Assembly (NCBI GenBank): GCA_030430535.1
Contig: JAUIKY010000011.1
Coordinates: 13,920 to 77,919 of the forward strand
Source of the DNA: Bacteroidia bacterium
GTDB taxonomy: Bacteria > Bacteroidota > Bacteroidia > Flavobacteriales > Flavobacteriaceae
DNA length: 64,000 nucleotides
Reading direction: 5' to 3'
The number at the start of each line of letters is the position of its first letter. Position 1 is the first letter of the stretch. This document shows positions 23,619 through 53,867 of the stretch, piece after piece. The translations under genes were made by a program, and so were the position numbers. The notes beneath the pieces are model-generated. The model saw only the letters and a list, made by a program, of their open reading frames with translations, searched no databases and had not been told where the DNA came from.

Positions 23619-24578
23619 ATGAAAAAAATTTTAAAAATTATTGGAATTGGGATCGCTATTTTAATTTCTGTTGTTGCTTTTTTTCTTTTATATGTTGCAG
23701 TCACCGATATCCCTTCTTACGAAGTCAAAACAATTGATTACACTGCAAAAATCACCCCTGAAGCCATTGAACGCGGAAAAAAACTAACCATCATGCTTTG
23801 CGCCAACTGCCACATGGACAATGAAACACGGAAATTAACAGGAAAAAGAATGCTCGATGCCCCTCCTGAATTTGGCGATATATACTCCCAAAATATTACT
23901 CAAGACAAACAATATGGCATAGGCAATTGGACCGACGGCGAATTGGTTTATCTTTTACGAACCGGCATTAAAAAAAACGGACAGTACAGTCCGCCATACA
24001 TGGCAAAATTACCCAATATGGCCGATGAGGACATCAATGCCATTATCGCATTTTTAAAGTCGGATGACCCTTTGGTTGCTGCCAATGCCGTTCCGGACAC
24101 ACCAACACAGCCTTCCTTTTTAACCAAATTGCTTTGTCGTGTGGCGTTCAAACCTTTCCCGATGCCAGACAAAAAAATTGATATGCCAAATCCTAATAAT
24201 GCGGTTGAACTGGGTAAATATCTGGCGCATAATCTCGATTGCTTTTCGTGCCATTCGTCAGATTTCAAAACCAACAATTATTTAAACCCCACACTAAGCG
24301 AAGGCTATTTTGCAGGAGGCAACAAACCTTTGGATGAAGAAGGCCGTGTAATGCTGACCCAAAACCTAACTTCGGACAAAGAAACCGGCATTGGCAATTG
24401 GGCAAAAGCAGACTTTATCAATGCCGTAAAATACGGCATTAAAAAAGGTGAAAATGCGCTGCGTTACCCTATGGTGCCCTATACCCAACTCACCGATGAA
24501 GAAGCAGGAGCCATTTATGAATACCTTCAAACCATACCTCCCATTAAAAACAAGGTGGAACGATCGGTTTACAATTAA
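23619..24578 (+). CDS. Membrane-anchored dihaem c-type cytochrome
   Basis: N-terminal TM helix, CANCH and CFSCH, SQNITQD/TQNLTSD...GIGNW and PMVPY axial Met motifs. Confidence 0.85.
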   Translation: MKKILKIIGIGIAILISVVAFFLLYVAVTDIPSYEVKTIDYTAKITPEAIERGKKLTIMLCANCHMDNETRKLTGKRMLDAPPEFGDIYSQNITQDKQYGIGNWTDGELVYLLRTGIKKNGQYSPPYMAKLPNMADEDINAIIAFLKSDDPLVAANAVPDTPTQPSFLTKLLCRVAFKPFPMPDKKIDMPNPNNAVELGKYLAHNLDCFSCHSSDFKTNNYLNPTLSEGYFAGGNKPLDEEGRVMLTQNLTSDKETGIGNWAKADFINAVKYGIKKGENALRYPMVPYTQLTDEEAGAIYEYLQTIPPIKNKVERSVYN

Positions 24579-24612
24579 AAAACTCTAAATATTGAAAACT
24601 AAATTCTGAACC

Positions 24613-25083
24613 ATGAAAAAAATTGAATTTAAAGAACAGATAAAAGCCTCTAAAAAAACAGTTTATGAAACTATGCTGGGGTTAAACGACATAACCACTT
24701 ATGAGCAATGGACCGCTGAATTCAACCCCACTTCTACTTATGAAGGCAGTTGGAATAAAGGGGACAAAATTTATTTTATCGGCACAGATGAAAATGGCAA
24801 GCGTGGCGGAATGGTCTCTGAAATTGCGGATAACACCCCTTTTGAATTCGTATCGATAAGGCACAACGGCATTCTTGATGGCGAAAACGAAATAACCTCT
24901 GGTGAACAAGTTGACGGTTGGGCGGGAAGTTTAGAAAACTATTCGTTTCAAGAAAATGATGGCATCACAACCGTAAAAGTCGAAATGGATGCAAATGATG
25001 ATTACATCGACTATTTTTCAGGAACTTGGCCCAAAGCATTAAAGAAACTTAAAAACATTGCAGAAAACAAAACGAACAGTTAA
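24613..25083 (+). CDS. SRPBCC (START-like) domain protein
   Basis: YEQWTAEF, EGSWNKGDKIYF, ENYSFQE, WPKALKKLK pattern. Confidence 0.75.
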   Translation: MKKIEFKEQIKASKKTVYETMLGLNDITTYEQWTAEFNPTSTYEGSWNKGDKIYFIGTDENGKRGGMVSEIADNTPFEFVSIRHNGILDGENEITSGEQVDGWAGSLENYSFQENDGITTVKVEMDANDDYIDYFSGTWPKALKKLKNIAENKTNS

Positions 25084-25237
25084 CAATGAGGATAAGGAAT
25101 TGCTCATTTCTACCTTTTCTAAGAATTTTTTCGGGTTTATCTAAAATTTGGTTTGATTCTCTTATTTAAAAAACTAACTTCGTTTATTGACTGATATGAG
25201 TCATTAAAACGGCGGCATATCATTAAAGTTGGACATA
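25078..25237 (+). repeat. attC-like cassette-boundary element 1
   Basis: Begins at SRPBCC stop: TAAC-AATG-N9-AATTGCT; ends ...TATCATTAAA-GTTGGAC (GTTRRRY core) 14 nt before next ATG. Confidence 0.5.
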
Positions 25238-25248
25238 ATTAACCGCGA

Positions 25249-26001
25249 ATGAAAAACTTTAGTAAATTCTCCGAAATTGAATTTCAAAAATTATGTGAAT
25301 CTCAAGAAGAGTTTTATTCAAAATATAATTTAGAATCATATGCAAATTGGTTTTATGACCAAGAAAGTGAATTACTGAGAATTTACAATGATGATGAAGA
25401 TGAATTATTCTTTAAATATACACCAATTGGAACATACTCATTAAAATCAAACACTTGGTTATGGAGTTGGAATAATGAGGACTCAATTGCAAAAAGTAAA
25501 AATGAAACTTTGAAAGTTAAATCTTTTGGAGAAAAATACAATTTTGAAAAACTAACAACTGGACTTGTTGAATGTAAAAAAGACGAGTGTTGGAACTTTG
25601 TTGCAATTAGTAGAAAATTTATTGAAAATATTGGAGCTTACTGTACTGAATCTAAAGGTTTATTGAGTTACAAGTTAATAACCTCTGAGTTTTTAGATAA
25701 AGAATCAATTTCAATAAAAAAAATGAAAGAAAAGATTGTTGATTGTGGAATTCACGGTTACAGAAGACCTGCTTTTGTTTGTCAACATTTGAATACTAAA
25801 ACTGCAATAGGTTTTGAAGAAGCATTTGAAACTTACAGAGGAATGGAATTAGAAGAAGATGACGACTTTTGTGCCTGGTGTAGTGAATGTGAAAAAGTAA
25901 GAATTGAAAATGATGGATGGAACGAAGAATCTGAAAAATTTGCAAAAATCAAATTAGTATGTGAAGAATGCTATTTTGAAATGAAAGAACTAAATGATTA
26001 A
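25249..26001 (+). CDS. AT-rich hypothetical protein: DUF6882-like N-domain plus Cys/His-rich C-domain
   Basis: WFYDQES...IGTYS..SNTWLWSWNN; C-terminal CGIHG, FVCQH, CAWCSEC, CEEC. Confidence 0.65.
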   Translation: MKNFSKFSEIEFQKLCESQEEFYSKYNLESYANWFYDQESELLRIYNDDEDELFFKYTPIGTYSLKSNTWLWSWNNEDSIAKSKNETLKVKSFGEKYNFEKLTTGLVECKKDECWNFVAISRKFIENIGAYCTESKGLLSYKLITSEFLDKESISIKKMKEKIVDCGIHGYRRPAFVCQHLNTKTAIGFEEAFETYRGMELEEDDDFCAWCSECEKVRIENDGWNEESEKFAKIKLVCEECYFEMKELND

Positions 26002-26007
26002 AAAAAC

Positions 26008-26112
26008 TATGGCTAACAACGTTCATATTCAATTGCTAGCTTTTGCCTAATTTGGAAAACCCTCGAGGATTTTCCATTCAGTAATTATTTGCTATTTTAG
26101 TACTTAAACCAC
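26008..26112 (+). repeat. attC-like cassette-boundary element 2 (3' truncated by the folK end)
   Basis: TATGGCTAAC-AACG-N9-AATTGCT with same spacing as element 1; internal GGAAAACCCTCGAGGATTTCC hairpin. Confidence 0.5.
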
Positions 26113-26122
26113 ACCTCTCAAA

Positions 26123-27253
26123 CTACTCCCCACAAATCTCGCCCAACACCCACAAATAATCGGCTCGGTTTTCCACAAAATCCTTTTCAGAAATATCAAT
26201 GATTTTAGTATTAAAATCAGTTTGCGATTTTAAAAACTCCAAATAGCCCGTATTTATTTTTTCCAGATATTCGTTGGCTATGTTTTGTTCGTAATCGCGC
26301 CCGCGTTTTTTAATGTTTTGTTGCAACCGTTCGGTGTTTTGGTAGAGGTACACGTATAGATCAGGCGTTTTTAAATCCTTGTACATGAGGTTGAACAATT
26401 TTCGGTACAACTTAAACTCATCTTCCTGAAGCGTAATTTTAGAAAAAATAAGCGATTTAAACACATCGTAATCGCTCACAATAAAATCCTTAAACAAATC
26501 GAGCTGCGCCAAATCGTCGCTGATTTGCTGGTAACGGTCGGCCAAAAACGACATTTCCAACGCAAAGGCATAACGGTTGGCATCTTCGTAAAATTTGGGC
26601 AAAAAAGGGTTATCGGCAAAACGCTCTAAAATGAGTTTCGCATTAAAATCGTTGGCAATTTTAGTGGCCAAACTGGTTTTTCCCGCACCAATATTCCCTT
26701 CAATAGCAATATAATTGTAGTTTGAAAAGCTAAAGGTTTTACTGGGGTTTTTCAACCATAAATTAATGGGTTCCAAGTCCGATTCGTCTTCACATGCCTC
26801 CAACAAAACCGAAACGGATGTCTTTAAAACCGGATGTTCCTCTTTGCTCGCCACATCGTTCAATGGAAACAACACAAAACGCCTTTTTTGCATTTCGGGA
26901 TGCGGCACTTGCAGCGTTCCTGTATCTATAATGCTATCCTCAGCAAAAACAATATCCAAATCAATAGTCCGTGCTTCGTAACCAGCACCATCGGTGCGCG
27001 TTCTTCCCAATTGGGTTTCAATCTTCAAAAGTTTATCGAGAACTTCTTGGGGCTGTAACCTGCTGTGCAATTCCAAACAGCAATTAAAAAAATCATCGCC
27101 CTCAAAACCAAAAGCGGGCGATTTATAAACCCTCGAAATTTTGGCCACATGCCCAATTTCGGTGTAAATGGCATCAACGGCAAGCTGTAGATTTTTAAAC
27201 TTATCGCCCTTGTTACTGCCCAGCGCAATGTAAAATGTGGTCGGTTTTATCAT
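26123..27253 (-). CDS. folK: HPPK (FolK) fused to deoxynucleoside kinase
   Basis: ALGSNKG, RTIDLDI, VPHPEMQKRRFVL; C-half IAIEGNIGAGKTSL P-loop, ERFADNPFL, KRGRDYE. Confidence 0.92.
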   Translation of the reverse strand: MIKPTTFYIALGSNKGDKFKNLQLAVDAIYTEIGHVAKISRVYKSPAFGFEGDDFFNCCLELHSRLQPQEVLDKLLKIETQLGRTRTDGAGYEARTIDLDIVFAEDSIIDTGTLQVPHPEMQKRRFVLFPLNDVASKEEHPVLKTSVSVLLEACEDESDLEPINLWLKNPSKTFSFSNYNYIAIEGNIGAGKTSLATKIANDFNAKLILERFADNPFLPKFYEDANRYAFALEMSFLADRYQQISDDLAQLDLFKDFIVSDYDVFKSLIFSKITLQEDEFKLYRKLFNLMYKDLKTPDLYVYLYQNTERLQQNIKKRGRDYEQNIANEYLEKINTGYLEFLKSQTDFNTKIIDISEKDFVENRADYLWVLGEICGE

Positions 27254-48377: not shown

Positions 48378-49766
48378 ATGAAAAATATTCCGTCTTATAT
48401 AAAAGAACACAAAGACCGATTTCTAAACGAACTTATCGAGCTACTTAAAATCCCATCGATAAGTGCCGATTCAAACTACAAAAACGATGTTTTAAAAACA
48501 GCCGAAGCCATTAAGCTAAGCTTGGAAAAAGCGGGCTGCGATACGGTTGAAATATGCTCCACCGGAGGCTATCCTATTGTATATGGCGACAAAATAATTG
48601 ACAAAAAACTGCCTACGGTTCTGGTTTACGGACATTACGATGTACAGCCGCCCGACCCATTACATTTATGGAACTCCCCGCCTTTTGAACCCGTAATAAA
48701 AAACACTGACAAACACCCAGAAGGCGCTATTTTTGCACGCGGTGCTTGCGACGACAAAGGCCAAATGTACATGCATGTTAAAGCCTTTGAGATTATGGTG
48801 AAAACCAACCAACTGCCCTGCAACGTAAAATTTATGATCGAAGGTGAAGAAGAGGTGGGCAGTGCCAATCTAGGGGATTTTGTAAAAAGCAATCGTGAGA
48901 AATTAAAAAACGACGTAATCCTTATTTCCGACACGGGAATGATTTCCAACGACACGCCTTCAATAACTACAGGTCTACGCGGCTTAAGTTACGTAGAGGT
49001 TGAAGTTACCGGTCCTAACAGAGATTTACACTCCGGTTTGTACGGTGGCGCCGTGGCCAACCCCATTAACATTTTAACCAAAATGATTGCCGCATTGCAC
49101 GACGAAAACAATCACATTACCATTCCCGGGTTTTACGACGAAGTTGAAGAGCTTTCATTGGAGGAGCGTGCCGAAATGGCTAAAGCACCTTTCAGTTTAG
49201 AGAACTACAAAAAAGCTTTAGATATCGATGCAGTTTATGGCGAATACGGATTCACCACCAATGAGCGGAATTCCATTCGTCCAACGCTCGACGTTAATGG
49301 TATTTGGGGTGGCTACATTGGTGAAGGGGCAAAAACCGTCATCCCCAGCAAAGCCTATGCAAAAATATCGATGCGCCTAGTGCCTAACCAAGACTGGCAG
49401 GAAATCACAAAACTATTCACCGCCTATTTTGAAAGCATTGCTCCAAAAGGCGTTAAGGTTAAAGTAACGCCACACCATGGTGGACAAGGTTACGTTACCC
49501 CCATTAACAGTATGGGGTACCAAGCCGCAAGCAAAGCCTACGAGCAAACCTTTGGCAAAAAACCCATACCGCAGCGCAGTGGTGGCAGTATTCCTATTGT
49601 GTCGTTATTTGAACAGGAACTGGAAAGTAAAATTATACTTATGGGCTTCGGGCTAGATAGCGATGCCATACACTCGCCCAACGAGCATTTTGGTATTTGG
49701 AACTACCTAAAAGGTATAGAAACCATACCCTATTTCTATAAGTATTTTACCGAACTATCAAAATAG
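48378..49766 (+). CDS. M20 family dipeptidase
   Basis: YGHYDVQP, ARGACDDKG, EGEEEVGS, RSGGSIP, HSPNE. Confidence 0.9.
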   Translation: MKNIPSYIKEHKDRFLNELIELLKIPSISADSNYKNDVLKTAEAIKLSLEKAGCDTVEICSTGGYPIVYGDKIIDKKLPTVLVYGHYDVQPPDPLHLWNSPPFEPVIKNTDKHPEGAIFARGACDDKGQMYMHVKAFEIMVKTNQLPCNVKFMIEGEEEVGSANLGDFVKSNREKLKNDVILISDTGMISNDTPSITTGLRGLSYVEVEVTGPNRDLHSGLYGGAVANPINILTKMIAALHDENNHITIPGFYDEVEELSLEERAEMAKAPFSLENYKKALDIDAVYGEYGFTTNERNSIRPTLDVNGIWGGYIGEGAKTVIPSKAYAKISMRLVPNQDWQEITKLFTAYFESIAPKGVKVKVTPHHGGQGYVTPINSMGYQAASKAYEQTFGKKPIPQRSGGSIPIVSLFEQELESKIILMGFGLDSDAIHSPNEHFGIWNYLKGIETIPYFYKYFTELSK

Positions 49767-52766: not shown

Positions 52767-53867
52767 ATGTTAAAGCCATTTTTCATCATCTGCTCGGGTG
52801 CCGATACCCATATTTTAAACGATTGTTCTGTCGGAGAACAGAATAAATACGCCGGCATTGGAGCTACCGTATTCTTTACTGCCATCATGGCATTTATTGC
52901 CGCTAGTTACGCTTTGTTCATCATTTTTGAAAACCTATACTCCGCCTTATTTTTCGGGTTGATTTGGGGGTTGCTCATATTTAATTTGGACCGCTACATT
53001 GTTTCTACCATAAAAAAAACAGGAAATCCATTAGGCGAATTTACGCAAGCTGCTCCCCGAATTATTTTGGCCGTTATTATTGCCGTGGTGATATCAAAGC
53101 CATTGGAATTGAAAATTTTTGAGAAAGAAATTAACCAAGTGCTTTTGGAACAAAAAAATGAGTTGACCTTAGCCAATAAAAGCCAAATAGCCGAACAATT
53201 TACACCAGAAATTGAAACGCTTCAAAATGAAATAAAGCATTTACAAAATCAAATAAACACAAAAGAGACCGAAGTCAATGCCCTATACACTACTTATATA
53301 TCAGAAGCCGAGGGCACGGCTGGCACAAAACTATTGGGCAAAGGTCCCGTTTACAAAGAAAAACGAGAAAAGCACGATGTCGCTTTGGCCGAACTCCAAC
53401 AACTTAAAACCGAAAATAAAGCCAAAATAGTTTCCCTCGAAAACCAAATGGCACAATTACAAAGCGATTATAATACCGAAGTCACCAACACACAGCCCAT
53501 AATCAATAATTTTGATGGTTTGATGGCGCGCGTTAATGCCTTGGGCAAATTGCCTTTATTGCCGTCATTGTTTATTTTTCTGCTGTTTTTAGCCATAGAA
53601 ACGGCGCCCATATTCGTAAAATTGCTTGCTCCACGAGGGGCTTACGACTTAAAATTGGAAGACCAAGAAGAAGCCATAAAAGCCCACGCACTTCAAAACA
53701 AAAACCAACGAGAAACATTGCTCAAAACCGATATCGCCATAAACAATAGGATTTATACCGATATTGAACAAGAAGACGAACTCTACCAATACAAACGCAA
53801 AAAAGCTAGGGAGCTTATGCAATTGCAGGCCGATGCCTTTTTCAACAAGCAAAAAAACGTGCTATAA
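52767..53867 (+). CDS. DUF4407 domain membrane/coiled-coil protein
   Basis: KYAGIGATVFFTA, FNLDRYIVS, PRIILAVIIAVVISKPLELKIF, E..GTAGT...GKGPVY. Confidence 0.75.
   Translation: MLKPFFIICSGADTHILNDCSVGEQNKYAGIGATVFFTAIMAFIAASYALFIIFENLYSALFFGLIWGLLIFNLDRYIVSTIKKTGNPLGEFTQAAPRIILAVIIAVVISKPLELKIFEKEINQVLLEQKNELTLANKSQIAEQFTPEIETLQNEIKHLQNQINTKETEVNALYTTYISEAEGTAGTKLLGKGPVYKEKREKHDVALAELQQLKTENKAKIVSLENQMAQLQSDYNTEVTNTQPIINNFDGLMARVNALGKLPLLPSLFIFLLFLAIETAPIFVKLLAPRGAYDLKLEDQEEAIKAHALQNKNQRETLLKTDIAINNRIYTDIEQEDELYQYKRKKARELMQLQADAFFNKQKNVL

Follow-up and report, generated by a model that had tools for sequence, protein, structure and literature searches.

A probable stranded gene cassette at an attI-like docking site points to an integron-like gene-capture system in Flavobacteriaceae

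Introduction

Integrons are the textbook gene-capture platform and are, to our knowledge, essentially undescribed in Bacteroidota, and the pdif modules of Acinetobacter plasmids carry 28-bp XerC/XerD sites in inverted pairs. The present study concerns a 64,000-nt stretch of DNA (hereafter the window) from a Bacteroidia bacterium of the family Flavobacteriaceae (assembly GCA_030430535.1, 3.64 Mb in 110 contigs, here G000; contig JAUIKY010000011.1, here C39, positions 13920-77919), in which a low-GC gene for a DUF6882 protein lies between two elements resembling integron recombination sites. Positions without a contig name are those of the window.

In Bacteroidales, the clusters called rAID-1 (for acquired interbacterial defence linked to a recombinase) consist of a XerD-family tyrosine recombinase followed by co-directional arrays of short, low-GC genes with intergenic repeats "reminiscent of integrons", and close homologues of the recombinase are, according to the authors, restricted to Bacteroidales (Ross et al. 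2019, bioRxiv 10.1101/471110). The operational definition is a tyrosine recombinase upstream of at least two co-directional genes of <41% GC, and in 2025 the "mechanism of biogenesis" was still called open (PMC12247911). The rAID-1 recombinase is further characterised by homology to BF9343_RS08045 (>50% identity, Bacteroidales only). Integrons comprise IntI, attI, Pc and attC arrays, and integrase-less CALIN and solo attC remnants are also known (Cury et al. 2016, PMC4889954). A full-text literature search returned nothing on such arrays, or on docking sites for cassettes, in Flavobacteriaceae.

The evidence set out below makes it likely that the DUF6882 gene forms a cassette by itself, belonging to a gene-capture system of Flavobacteriaceae that resembles integrons, and is stranded at an attI-like docking site of a family termed P-A.

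Results and discussion

The cassette unit and its cargo

The cargo of the unit is a 250-aa DUF6882 protein (PF21813, E 4.7e-28) encoded on the forward strand at 25249..26001 with 28% GC (27-30% against ~42% in the neighbours), in agreement with the AT-richness remarked on in the sequence-only reading that this analysis followed up. Two copies of one skeleton, TAAC-AAYG-N9-AATTGCT, flank this open reading frame (ORF): TAACAATGAGGATAAGGAATTGCT at 25081-25104, overlapping the TAA stop of ORF 24613-25083, and TAACAACGTTCATATTCAATTGCT at 26014-26037, 13 nt past the stop of the cargo ORF. These are the only two exact occurrences on both strands of the assembly; a shuffle test of the skeleton was discounted as circular, because the pattern had been written from the two copies themselves. 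The motif GTTGGAC occupies 25228-25234, with the ATG of the cargo ORF 14 nt downstream, and the 5' cassette end GTTGGACATA (25228..25237, forward strand; GTT plus seven cassette-specific bases) is complementary at 8/10 positions to the 3' cassette end TATGGCTAAC (26008..26017, forward strand; seven cassette-specific bases plus AAC, the R'' core). The skeleton, the GTTGGAC core and the complementary ends are all located where the sequence-only reading had placed them.

The DUF6882 domain spans residues 11-145 and is followed by a conserved Cys/His-rich C-terminal part; C166, H169, C178, H180, C211, C214 and C238 are invariant, a pattern that suggests two zinc sites. A confident AlphaFold2 model (pLDDT 91) had no fold match in the PDB, PADLOC did not hit the protein, the NCBIfam hits were of no value, and the literature search on its function returned one unrelated paper mentioning DUF6882. 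Close DUF6882-ZnF homologues were found in 1/150 other sampled genera (G076, 52-53% identity), where they are array cassettes with perfect ends GTTGTGCTTA and TAAGCACAAC; the ORF is thus not vertically inherited across the family. Both G076 copies lie 66 nt from contig starts, each after ..CAAACCGTT^GTGCTTAATG (^ marks a cassette junction here and below), and one of them continues with CTAAGCAC-AAC-AATGTATATAAAAC..attC..GACGTT^GTACAC and the next ORF. In a large protein collection the DUF6882 family is patchy over Flavobacteriales (Psychroserpens, Snuella, Tenacibaculum, Chryseobacterium, Nonlabens and Maribacter), and many of the contigs carrying it measure 0.9-1.2 kb, approximately one cassette length.

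Cassette ends and insertion at GTT

By BLAST and nhmmer, the 3' part of the left element (window ~25150-25230) has ~15 relatives in G000, the P-A copies, each followed within 10-60 nt by an ORF of 26-33% GC, with flanks of 37-45% GC, and the downstream genes are unrelated to one another. Similarity among the copies ends at ..TTAAAGTT, that is, at GTT. The 10 nt starting at this triplet are mirrored just past the ORF stop as seven bases plus AAC: 7/21 units at P-A and at a second site family, P-B, are perfect (10/10) and one reaches 9/10, against 2.6% of mismatched cassette pairs at ≥9/10 and 8% at ≥8/10. Examples of perfect pairs, 5' end before 3' end, are GTTGTACACA and TGTGTACAAC (C100 unit), GTTACCATAC and GTATGGTAAC (C96 unit), and GTTGGCATTA and TAATGCCAAC (C68 unit). 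After AAC follows an element of 125-150 nt with the arrangement AAC-A(A/C)YG..(A/C)ATTGC..GAAAATCC/GGATTTTC hairpin..CGCAAC..L'..CCGTT, which in complete sites forms an imperfect palindrome R''-L''...L'-R' with AAC/GTT cores and bulged bases.

Sister species carry 5-11 P-A copies each, spread round the chromosome, many of them at loci orthologous to those of G000. At such orthologous loci the upstream flanks are 78-94% identical and the sequence past GTT is unrelated, with 2-4 species holding unrelated cassettes. Empty sites in sister genomes, set beforehand as a check, were found in two exact empty/occupied pairs, in which cassette plus attC-like site is inserted precisely at (G/A)TT. At the C16 locus, the occupied site of G000 reads ..TATATCATTAAAGTT^GGCGTTAATA.. 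133-aa ORF ..TAATGCCATC-AAC..attC..AAAACCGTT^AACTACCCAAAATCCTCAGCC and the empty site of G002 reads ..CATATCATTAAAATT^AACCACCCCAAATCCTCAAC (in short form, ..CATTAAAGTT^GGCG..cassette+attC..CCGTT^AACTACCCAAAATCC versus ..CATTAAAATT^AACCACCCCAAATCC). At the C68 locus, G002 (L143) is occupied, ..CCTTAAAGTT^GTGGTGC.. 195-aa ORF ..CACCAC-AAC..attC..GAGACCGTT^AAGCGAACCACTTC, and G003 (L149) is empty, ..CCTAAAAGTT^AAACGAACCACCTC; the L143 insert is a 677-nt cassette plus attC-like site between ..AAAGTT^ and GTT^AAGCGAACCAC, aligned with ..AAAAGTT^AAACGAACCAC in L149. One empty docking site has ATT instead of GTT. These alignments place insertion at the docking-site GTT, and the GTT+7 / 7+AAC ends of cassettes would arise because insertion occurs at this triplet.

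A truncated attC-like site behind the cargo gene

A profile built from ten AATTGC-type attC-like spacers of other genera only provided an independent test of both window elements. The cassette's own attC-like site (26009..~26122, forward strand) scores 35.3 bits over 26009-26100 (genome-wide E 1.6e-8), a match that covers model positions 2-93 of ~137, and retains R''/L'', the AATTGCT box, the TTTGCTA..TTAAACCAC block and, at 26054-26075, the internal hairpin GGAAAACCCTCGAGGATTTTCC, with homology extending by eye to ..TTAAACCACAC..AACTAC at ~26122. Of the expected L'/R' (..ATATGAAC..CGTT) there is no trace, and its place is taken by the final codons and the stop of HPPK-dNK, a convergent gene. 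As single-stranded DNA the right element forms the internal hairpin only, with no end-to-end stem (z -0.95), whereas complete attC-like sites fold end to end (C29 z -6.2, L036 z -4.7, C16 z -2.6). By profile and fold, the right element is a real attC-like site that has lost its 3' arm (L'/R'), in line with the erosion proposed in the sequence-only reading. The attC-like folding set there as a check is seen end to end in complete sites elsewhere and in neither window element.

The truncation bears on an alternative in which the window cassette is still mobile and ends in a short attC variant, ..GTACTT^AAACCAC.. (26105-26113), with CTT for GTT. The right flanks of empty sites do resemble the window sequence AAACCACACCTCTC (GTT^AAACGAACCACCTC in L149, GTT^AAACGAACCTCTC in L142 and ATT^AACCACCCC in L162), and one empty site has ATT in place of GTT. 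However, TTAAACCAC is internal to complete attC-like sites of other genera (e.g. GCTAAACCACGCAAC..CCGTT), no L' complementary to the window L'' (AACGTTCATAT) is present, the strand lacks an end-to-end fold, and the gene is found on all strain-level contigs, which together render continued mobility improbable.

The sequences that follow GTT at empty sites, or follow the last attC-like site, are mutually similar (AAACGAACCACCTC, AAACGAACCTCTC, AACCACCCC and AAACGCCCTCCC, from L149, L142, L154, L162 and G000 C100:34786; compare window 26105-26121) and also resemble the attC-internal TTAAACCACAC block. They may represent a right half of the docking site that is conserved, and a deletion between this half and the attC-internal block may have been the route to the window truncation.

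The composite left element and its docking site

The sequence-only reading took both flanks for related attC-like sites. This holds for the right flank; on the left it extends no further than ~60 nt, since 25152-25230 is an attI-like docking site. Judged by its sequence matches, the left element is a composite of a weak attC 5'-half remnant followed by the P-A site, rather than one attC. The remnant (25079..25138, forward strand) comprises R''/L'' (TAAC-AATGAGGATAAGG), the AATTGCT box and a degenerate first hairpin arm, matches the other-genera profile in the same register (positions 5-65, 8.8 bits) and parallels L034_2598-type sites by eye; the left element as a whole does not fold (z +0.09). 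An upstream attC-like element (AACAATG) is present at only 2/55 P-A sites, and the idea that P-A is generally a promoter cassette lacking an ORF and having R''/L'' of its own was therefore rejected.

The P-A site proper (25152..25230, forward strand; model R1, 53 bits, E 4.7e-15) contains a -33 TTG (25153-25155), a -7 box TAACTTCG (25175-25182), inverted arms TGATATG / CATATCA (25192-25198 / 25216-25222) and the crossover triplet GTT (25228-25230), all on the forward strand. All P-A copies share TTGACTTTGTAAAAAATTTCAACTA(A/C)CTTCG, that is, TTG, ~19-20 nt and TAnnTTCG; the last of these departs at one position from TAnnTTTG, the consensus of the sigma-A -7 box in flavobacteria (PMC9723704). 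P-A thus carries a promoter-like -33/-7 module of the Bacteroidetes type. Because this module lies inside the left element, the sequence-only view of a promoterless unit with little room for a promoter has to be abandoned. Behind the module follows the core CGTTTAAC..GATAT..AAGTCATT.AAAACGACG.ATATC.TTAAAGTT, whose arms covary (TGATAT/ATATCA, GGATAT/ATATCC, GTATAT/ATATAC). Approximately one third of the copies have an extra internal hairpin. This optional hairpin takes the form GTGCTGAAC.TGTTTCAGTATT or the variant GCTGYCCCGATAACTATCGGG, and it can differ at orthologous sister-species sites, e.g. G000 C16:2896-3000 versus G002 L162:1497-1580.

Beyond the genus, P-A is present in 34/151 Flavobacteriaceae genera, with up to at least 27 scored copies per genome, and there too low-GC ORFs stand behind it, with 7+AAC and an attC-like site at their end (e.g. 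L049, GTTGGCAAAC / GTTTGCCAAC).

The same features could be read as a shared promoter and structured 5' leader of a regulon, with the ORF an ordinary horizontally acquired gene and the similarity of its flanks incidental. The promoter-like module, conserved core and covarying arms would suit a leader, P-A always lies just upstream of an ORF and would hence be transcribed as one, and P-A occurs without close recombinase orthologues. Against this stand the mutually unrelated downstream genes, conservation that stops exactly at GTT and gives way to cassette-specific inverted ends, and the two empty/occupied pairs, in which a whole ORF plus attC-like site is inserted at GTT. Moreover, Rfam covariance models gave nothing better than E 0.89 in 24500-26400 and no match on 25150-25235. 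A regulon leader without any cassette is accordingly given little credence, although P-A could serve as a leader and as a docking site at once.

Recombinase, P-B sites and cassette arrays

The recombinase was expected to lie elsewhere, and a candidate is indeed encoded on a separate contig. Among the six tyrosine recombinases of G000, none of them an IntI, the gene at C29:862-1989 specifies a 376-aa Xer/IntI-like protein with a ~100-aa N-terminal extension, followed co-directionally by a P-B site and a first cassette, namely a 171-aa ORF of 30-33% GC ending in ..GCACATAAC and a 130-nt palindrome (z -6.2); the start of the next ORF precedes the contig end. A near-copy of the window skeleton on this contig is a true-looking imperfect palindrome. 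No 127-mer overlap joined the end of C29 to any other contig.

P-B reads TATATTTATCGGGATAAATATA, then GATAAACGCAATTGCGTTTATC, then CAATTGTT^ATGTGC. A P-B-type site directly follows the recombinase gene in 8/8 fetched loci (9/9 with C29), and for this reason P-B is taken as the attI equivalent. At four loci, >20 kb of co-oriented ORFs of 100-350 aa at ~30% GC (>25 genes) extends past the recombinase gene, and in other genera the ~140-nt array spacers follow the GTT+7 / 7+AAC rule cassette after cassette. G000 in addition holds at least 11 stand-alone P-B sites without a recombinase, most of them preceded by a promoter-like module and followed by a low-GC ORF (C87:38858, C3:167-223, C73:48990, C92:654-710, C55:59500, C61:9097, C101:1462, C42:64845, C69:51038, C108:76760 and C56:58794); four of these eleven have perfect GTT+7 / 7+AAC ends.

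Full-length orthologues of the C29 recombinase (55-76% identity) occur in ~35/151 Flavobacteriaceae genera, and at least 503 public records contain a relative, up to 79% identical, with hosts including Winogradskyella, Seonamhaeicola, Mangrovimonas, Aquimarina, Maribacter, Cellulophaga, Polaribacter and Dokdonia. The best 80 public relatives are nearly all from Flavobacteriaceae, together with two metagenome-assembled genomes of Crocinitomicaceae and a few records labelled Flavobacteriales or Bacteroidetes. Within the genus, close orthologues are present in G001 and G004 and a divergent one in G002, and none was found in the incomplete G003. With related elements genome-wide and family-wide, the mobile gene-cassette system with long, atypical attC-like sites that the sequence-only reading envisaged for Flavobacteriaceae gains support. 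P-A presence and N-domain-bearing recombinase homologues appear only loosely associated: a rough hand tally, uncorrected for phylogeny, gives such homologues in 22/34 P-A-positive and 36/117 P-A-negative genera.

Other cassettes of G000 carry a PADLOC PDC-S49 candidate defence protein (630 aa, E 5e-62, C68:51490-53390), a type II restriction-enzyme-like protein (295 aa, E 5e-34, C110:6560-7450) and a HigB-like toxin, behind which lies a small ORF (C24:~15560-15270). Many G000 contigs have attC-like sites ~115 nt from their ends (C103:115-242, C74:116-242, C107:118-244, C58, C87, C104, C14 and C108), and some apparently single cassettes may be longer arrays, because the k=127 assembly breaks at attC-like repeats. 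The same 75-nt sequence, AACAAAGATCTGAGTTAAAAAACAAGTC...CTTCCAGAT, follows two different cassettes (G000 C68:~53390-53512 and C74:~48420-48641), and both contigs end soon after; it is another repeat class.

These data also bear on whether the unit is a true integron cassette, that is, a solo cassette or CALIN-type remnant with a classical attC moved by IntI. The grammar is shared, including AAC/GTT cores, complementary ends, stops in or at the inverse core, bulged palindromes and G/TT insertion, and the C29 protein reaches 212.9 bits on TIGR02249 (integron integrase) and E 1.6e-41 against VchIntI4 (2a3v). Nevertheless, TIGR02249 has a cut-off of 265 bits and matches in two stretches, as does 2a3v, which fits the absence of the IntI-specific insertion that the protein probably lacks. 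It scores as well or better as a XerA/XerC-like protein: NF040815 ("site-specific tyrosine recombinase/integron integrase", XerA-type) gives 233 bits against a cut-off of 220, and XerA (5hxy) matches about as well as 2a3v and in one stretch, compared with 137 bits against a cut-off of 435 for NF011946. The N-terminal extension, the co-directional orientation of recombinase gene and cassettes at 9/9 loci, the lack of IntI among the six recombinases, the sites of 125-150 nt with their own consensus, and docking sites that are many and dispersed rather than one attI beside intI all point away from a classical integron, which is hardly credible as the source of the unit. The integron-like character proposed at the outset therefore stands for the crossover and the cassette-end rule and falls on the integrase and the architecture. 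A miniature inverted-repeat transposable element or insertion-sequence-type element was rejected, as the unit ends, of which the left is a promoter box and the right an attC-like site, are unrelated rather than terminal inverted repeats and the empty sites show no target-site duplication.

The window locus and its neighbours

Upstream of the unit lie a cytochrome c gene and a 156-aa SRPBCC-like ORF (24613..25083, forward strand; no Pfam hit, GC 36-42%), and downstream the convergent gene for a fusion of HPPK and deoxynucleoside kinase (26123..27253, reverse strand), whose stop codon abuts the truncated site. HPPK-dNK orthologues are present in 24/25 relatives, with differing neighbours on the cassette side. 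Four same-genus genomes and one of another genus each have their own version of the stretch from pfkB/cytochrome c to HPPK-dNK. The SRPBCC - DUF6882 - HPPK-dNK arrangement is kept on all 10-12 metagenome contigs at strain level, those with the exact SRPBCC or DUF6882 protein. This partly establishes fixation of the DUF6882 cassette in the species, which is what loss of its capacity for excision would lead one to expect.

The TAA stop of the SRPBCC gene (25081-25083) falls within GTTAAC, where the attC-like remnant starts, and SRPBCC homologues in two other genera end four residues earlier, which is not decisive. The suggestion that SRPBCC is itself an older cassette was not supported: its GC content is normal, no GTT+7 partner lies upstream (7/10 at best), and it lacks cassette-type end repeats. 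The HPPK (folate pathway) and deoxynucleoside kinase parts are fused in one 376-aa protein, a fusion that most of the family retains; elsewhere in the order, some families give matches to only one half or have the halves in separate adjacent frames.

Proposed mechanism and weighing of the evidence

In the proposed mechanism, a Xer/IntI-like tyrosine recombinase, here encoded on another contig, would exchange circular cassettes in trans, possibly with folded single strands as the substrate. Each cassette consists of an ORF and an attC-like imperfect palindrome of ~125-150 nt; insertion at a GTT triplet, as in the two empty/occupied pairs, yields a chromosomal cassette that starts with GTT+7 and ends with the complement plus AAC, followed by its own attC-like site. 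Cassettes stack in long arrays behind the recombinase gene, as seen in other genera, and also enter many stand-alone docking sites round the chromosome, where the promoter-like module of P-A would transcribe whatever is inserted. In the window, the DUF6882 cassette would have entered at GTT 25228-25230 and would now be immobile because its own attC-like site subsequently lost the L'/R' arm, so that excision is no longer possible. The ~60-nt attC 5'-half ahead of P-A would be debris, and the P-A site, which looks intact, could still accept further cassettes.

Several observations weigh against this interpretation. The end complementarity of the window unit is 8/10, which 8% of mismatched pairs attain; the profile match of the left remnant (E 0.0014 in a 2-kb search) is not significant genome-wide; and no empty site at the window locus was present in the five aligned genomes. 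The P-A promoter is a consensus match with one mismatch rather than a mapped start site, and recombination is known here from sequence comparison. P-A was not found inside six recombinase-adjacent arrays, several genera with strong recombinase orthologues have no P-A, and some P-A-rich genera have recombinase homologues of just 36-47% identity. P-A copies do not rise and fall in number with close orthologues of the C29 recombinase, and we therefore infer which recombinase serves P-A. The alignments, profiles and folds described above nonetheless bear out the P-A and P-B families, the rule for cassette ends, the GTT insertion point, the arrays that follow the recombinase gene and the truncation of the window site.

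A broader proposal, which we favour by a little, is a "distributed integron", in which, in addition to the array that follows the recombinase gene, 10-30 conserved, promoter-bearing P-A and P-B docking sites per chromosome, at orthologous loci in different species, would be loaded and unloaded with single cassettes in trans by a Xer-like recombinase from a family-wide pool of defence and accessory genes. If true, gene capture and expression would be decentralised, unlike in any described integron or rAID system. Confirmation of the flavobacterial system in general would explain much of the "orphan" low-GC gene content of abundant marine flavobacteria and make automatic annotation of cassettes and docking sites feasible. 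It would also offer a tractable model for the building of rAID-type arrays and perhaps, for Bacteroidota, a new tool for site-specific insertion. The window unit itself would be a decayed, fixed example.

Comparison with known systems

Like integrons, the flavobacterial system has single-ORF cassettes, complete sites that fold as imperfect palindromes with AAC/GTT cores, G/TT insertion and complementary outer ends, a promoter-bearing docking site predicted to express captured genes, and defence-type cargo (PDC-S49, a restriction enzyme and a toxin-antitoxin pair). It differs in that IntI has a specific additional domain, whereas the recombinase here falls below the TIGR02249 cut-off and bears an N-terminal extension; in that intI is divergent from its array, whereas the recombinase gene here is co-directional; and in that attC is shorter and follows another consensus. 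Furthermore, integrons have a single attI by intI, compared with 10-27 or more dispersed docking sites per genome here, kept at orthologous loci across species. In integrons the folded bottom strand recombines with replicative resolution, and here folded single strands are a predicted substrate. The pdif modules share with this system discrete gene modules bounded by sites for Xer-type recombinases encoded elsewhere, but a long palindromic site, a docking site with a promoter and arrays running in one direction are not known from them.

Among published systems rAID-1 comes closest, and the flavobacterial system is not a true integron. Both occur in the same phylum and have a recombinase heading co-directional low-GC arrays with repetitive intergenic motifs; the conserved intergenic motifs of rAID-1, compared by description only, have a counterpart in the array spacers. 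The C29 locus (the 171-aa ORF and the next ORF start) and the orthologue arrays fall within the gene arrangement that defines rAID-1, whereas the window holds a lone cassette without a recombinase. The rAID-1 cargo consists of orphan immunity genes, and the cassettes here encode PDC-S49, a type II restriction enzyme, a HigB-like toxin and DUF6882. Hosts also differ (gut Bacteroidales, the sole order for which rAID-1 is described, versus marine Flavobacteriaceae), and the sites of 125-150 nt are set apart from what is described for rAID-1. For rAID-1 there are no published cassette boundaries, crossover point or docking sites, whereas the present analysis offers the GTT+7 / 7+AAC rule and exact empty sites, and has numerous stand-alone docking sites that bear a promoter-like module and lie far from the recombinase. 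Collectively, these comparisons outline a concrete grammar for a rAID-type system in marine Flavobacteriaceae, comprising a crossover triplet, a cassette-end rule, an attI-like site behind the recombinase and exact empty sites, and, unlike in integrons, its many stand-alone docking sites with their promoter-like modules occupy the same chromosomal places across species while their cargo turns over.

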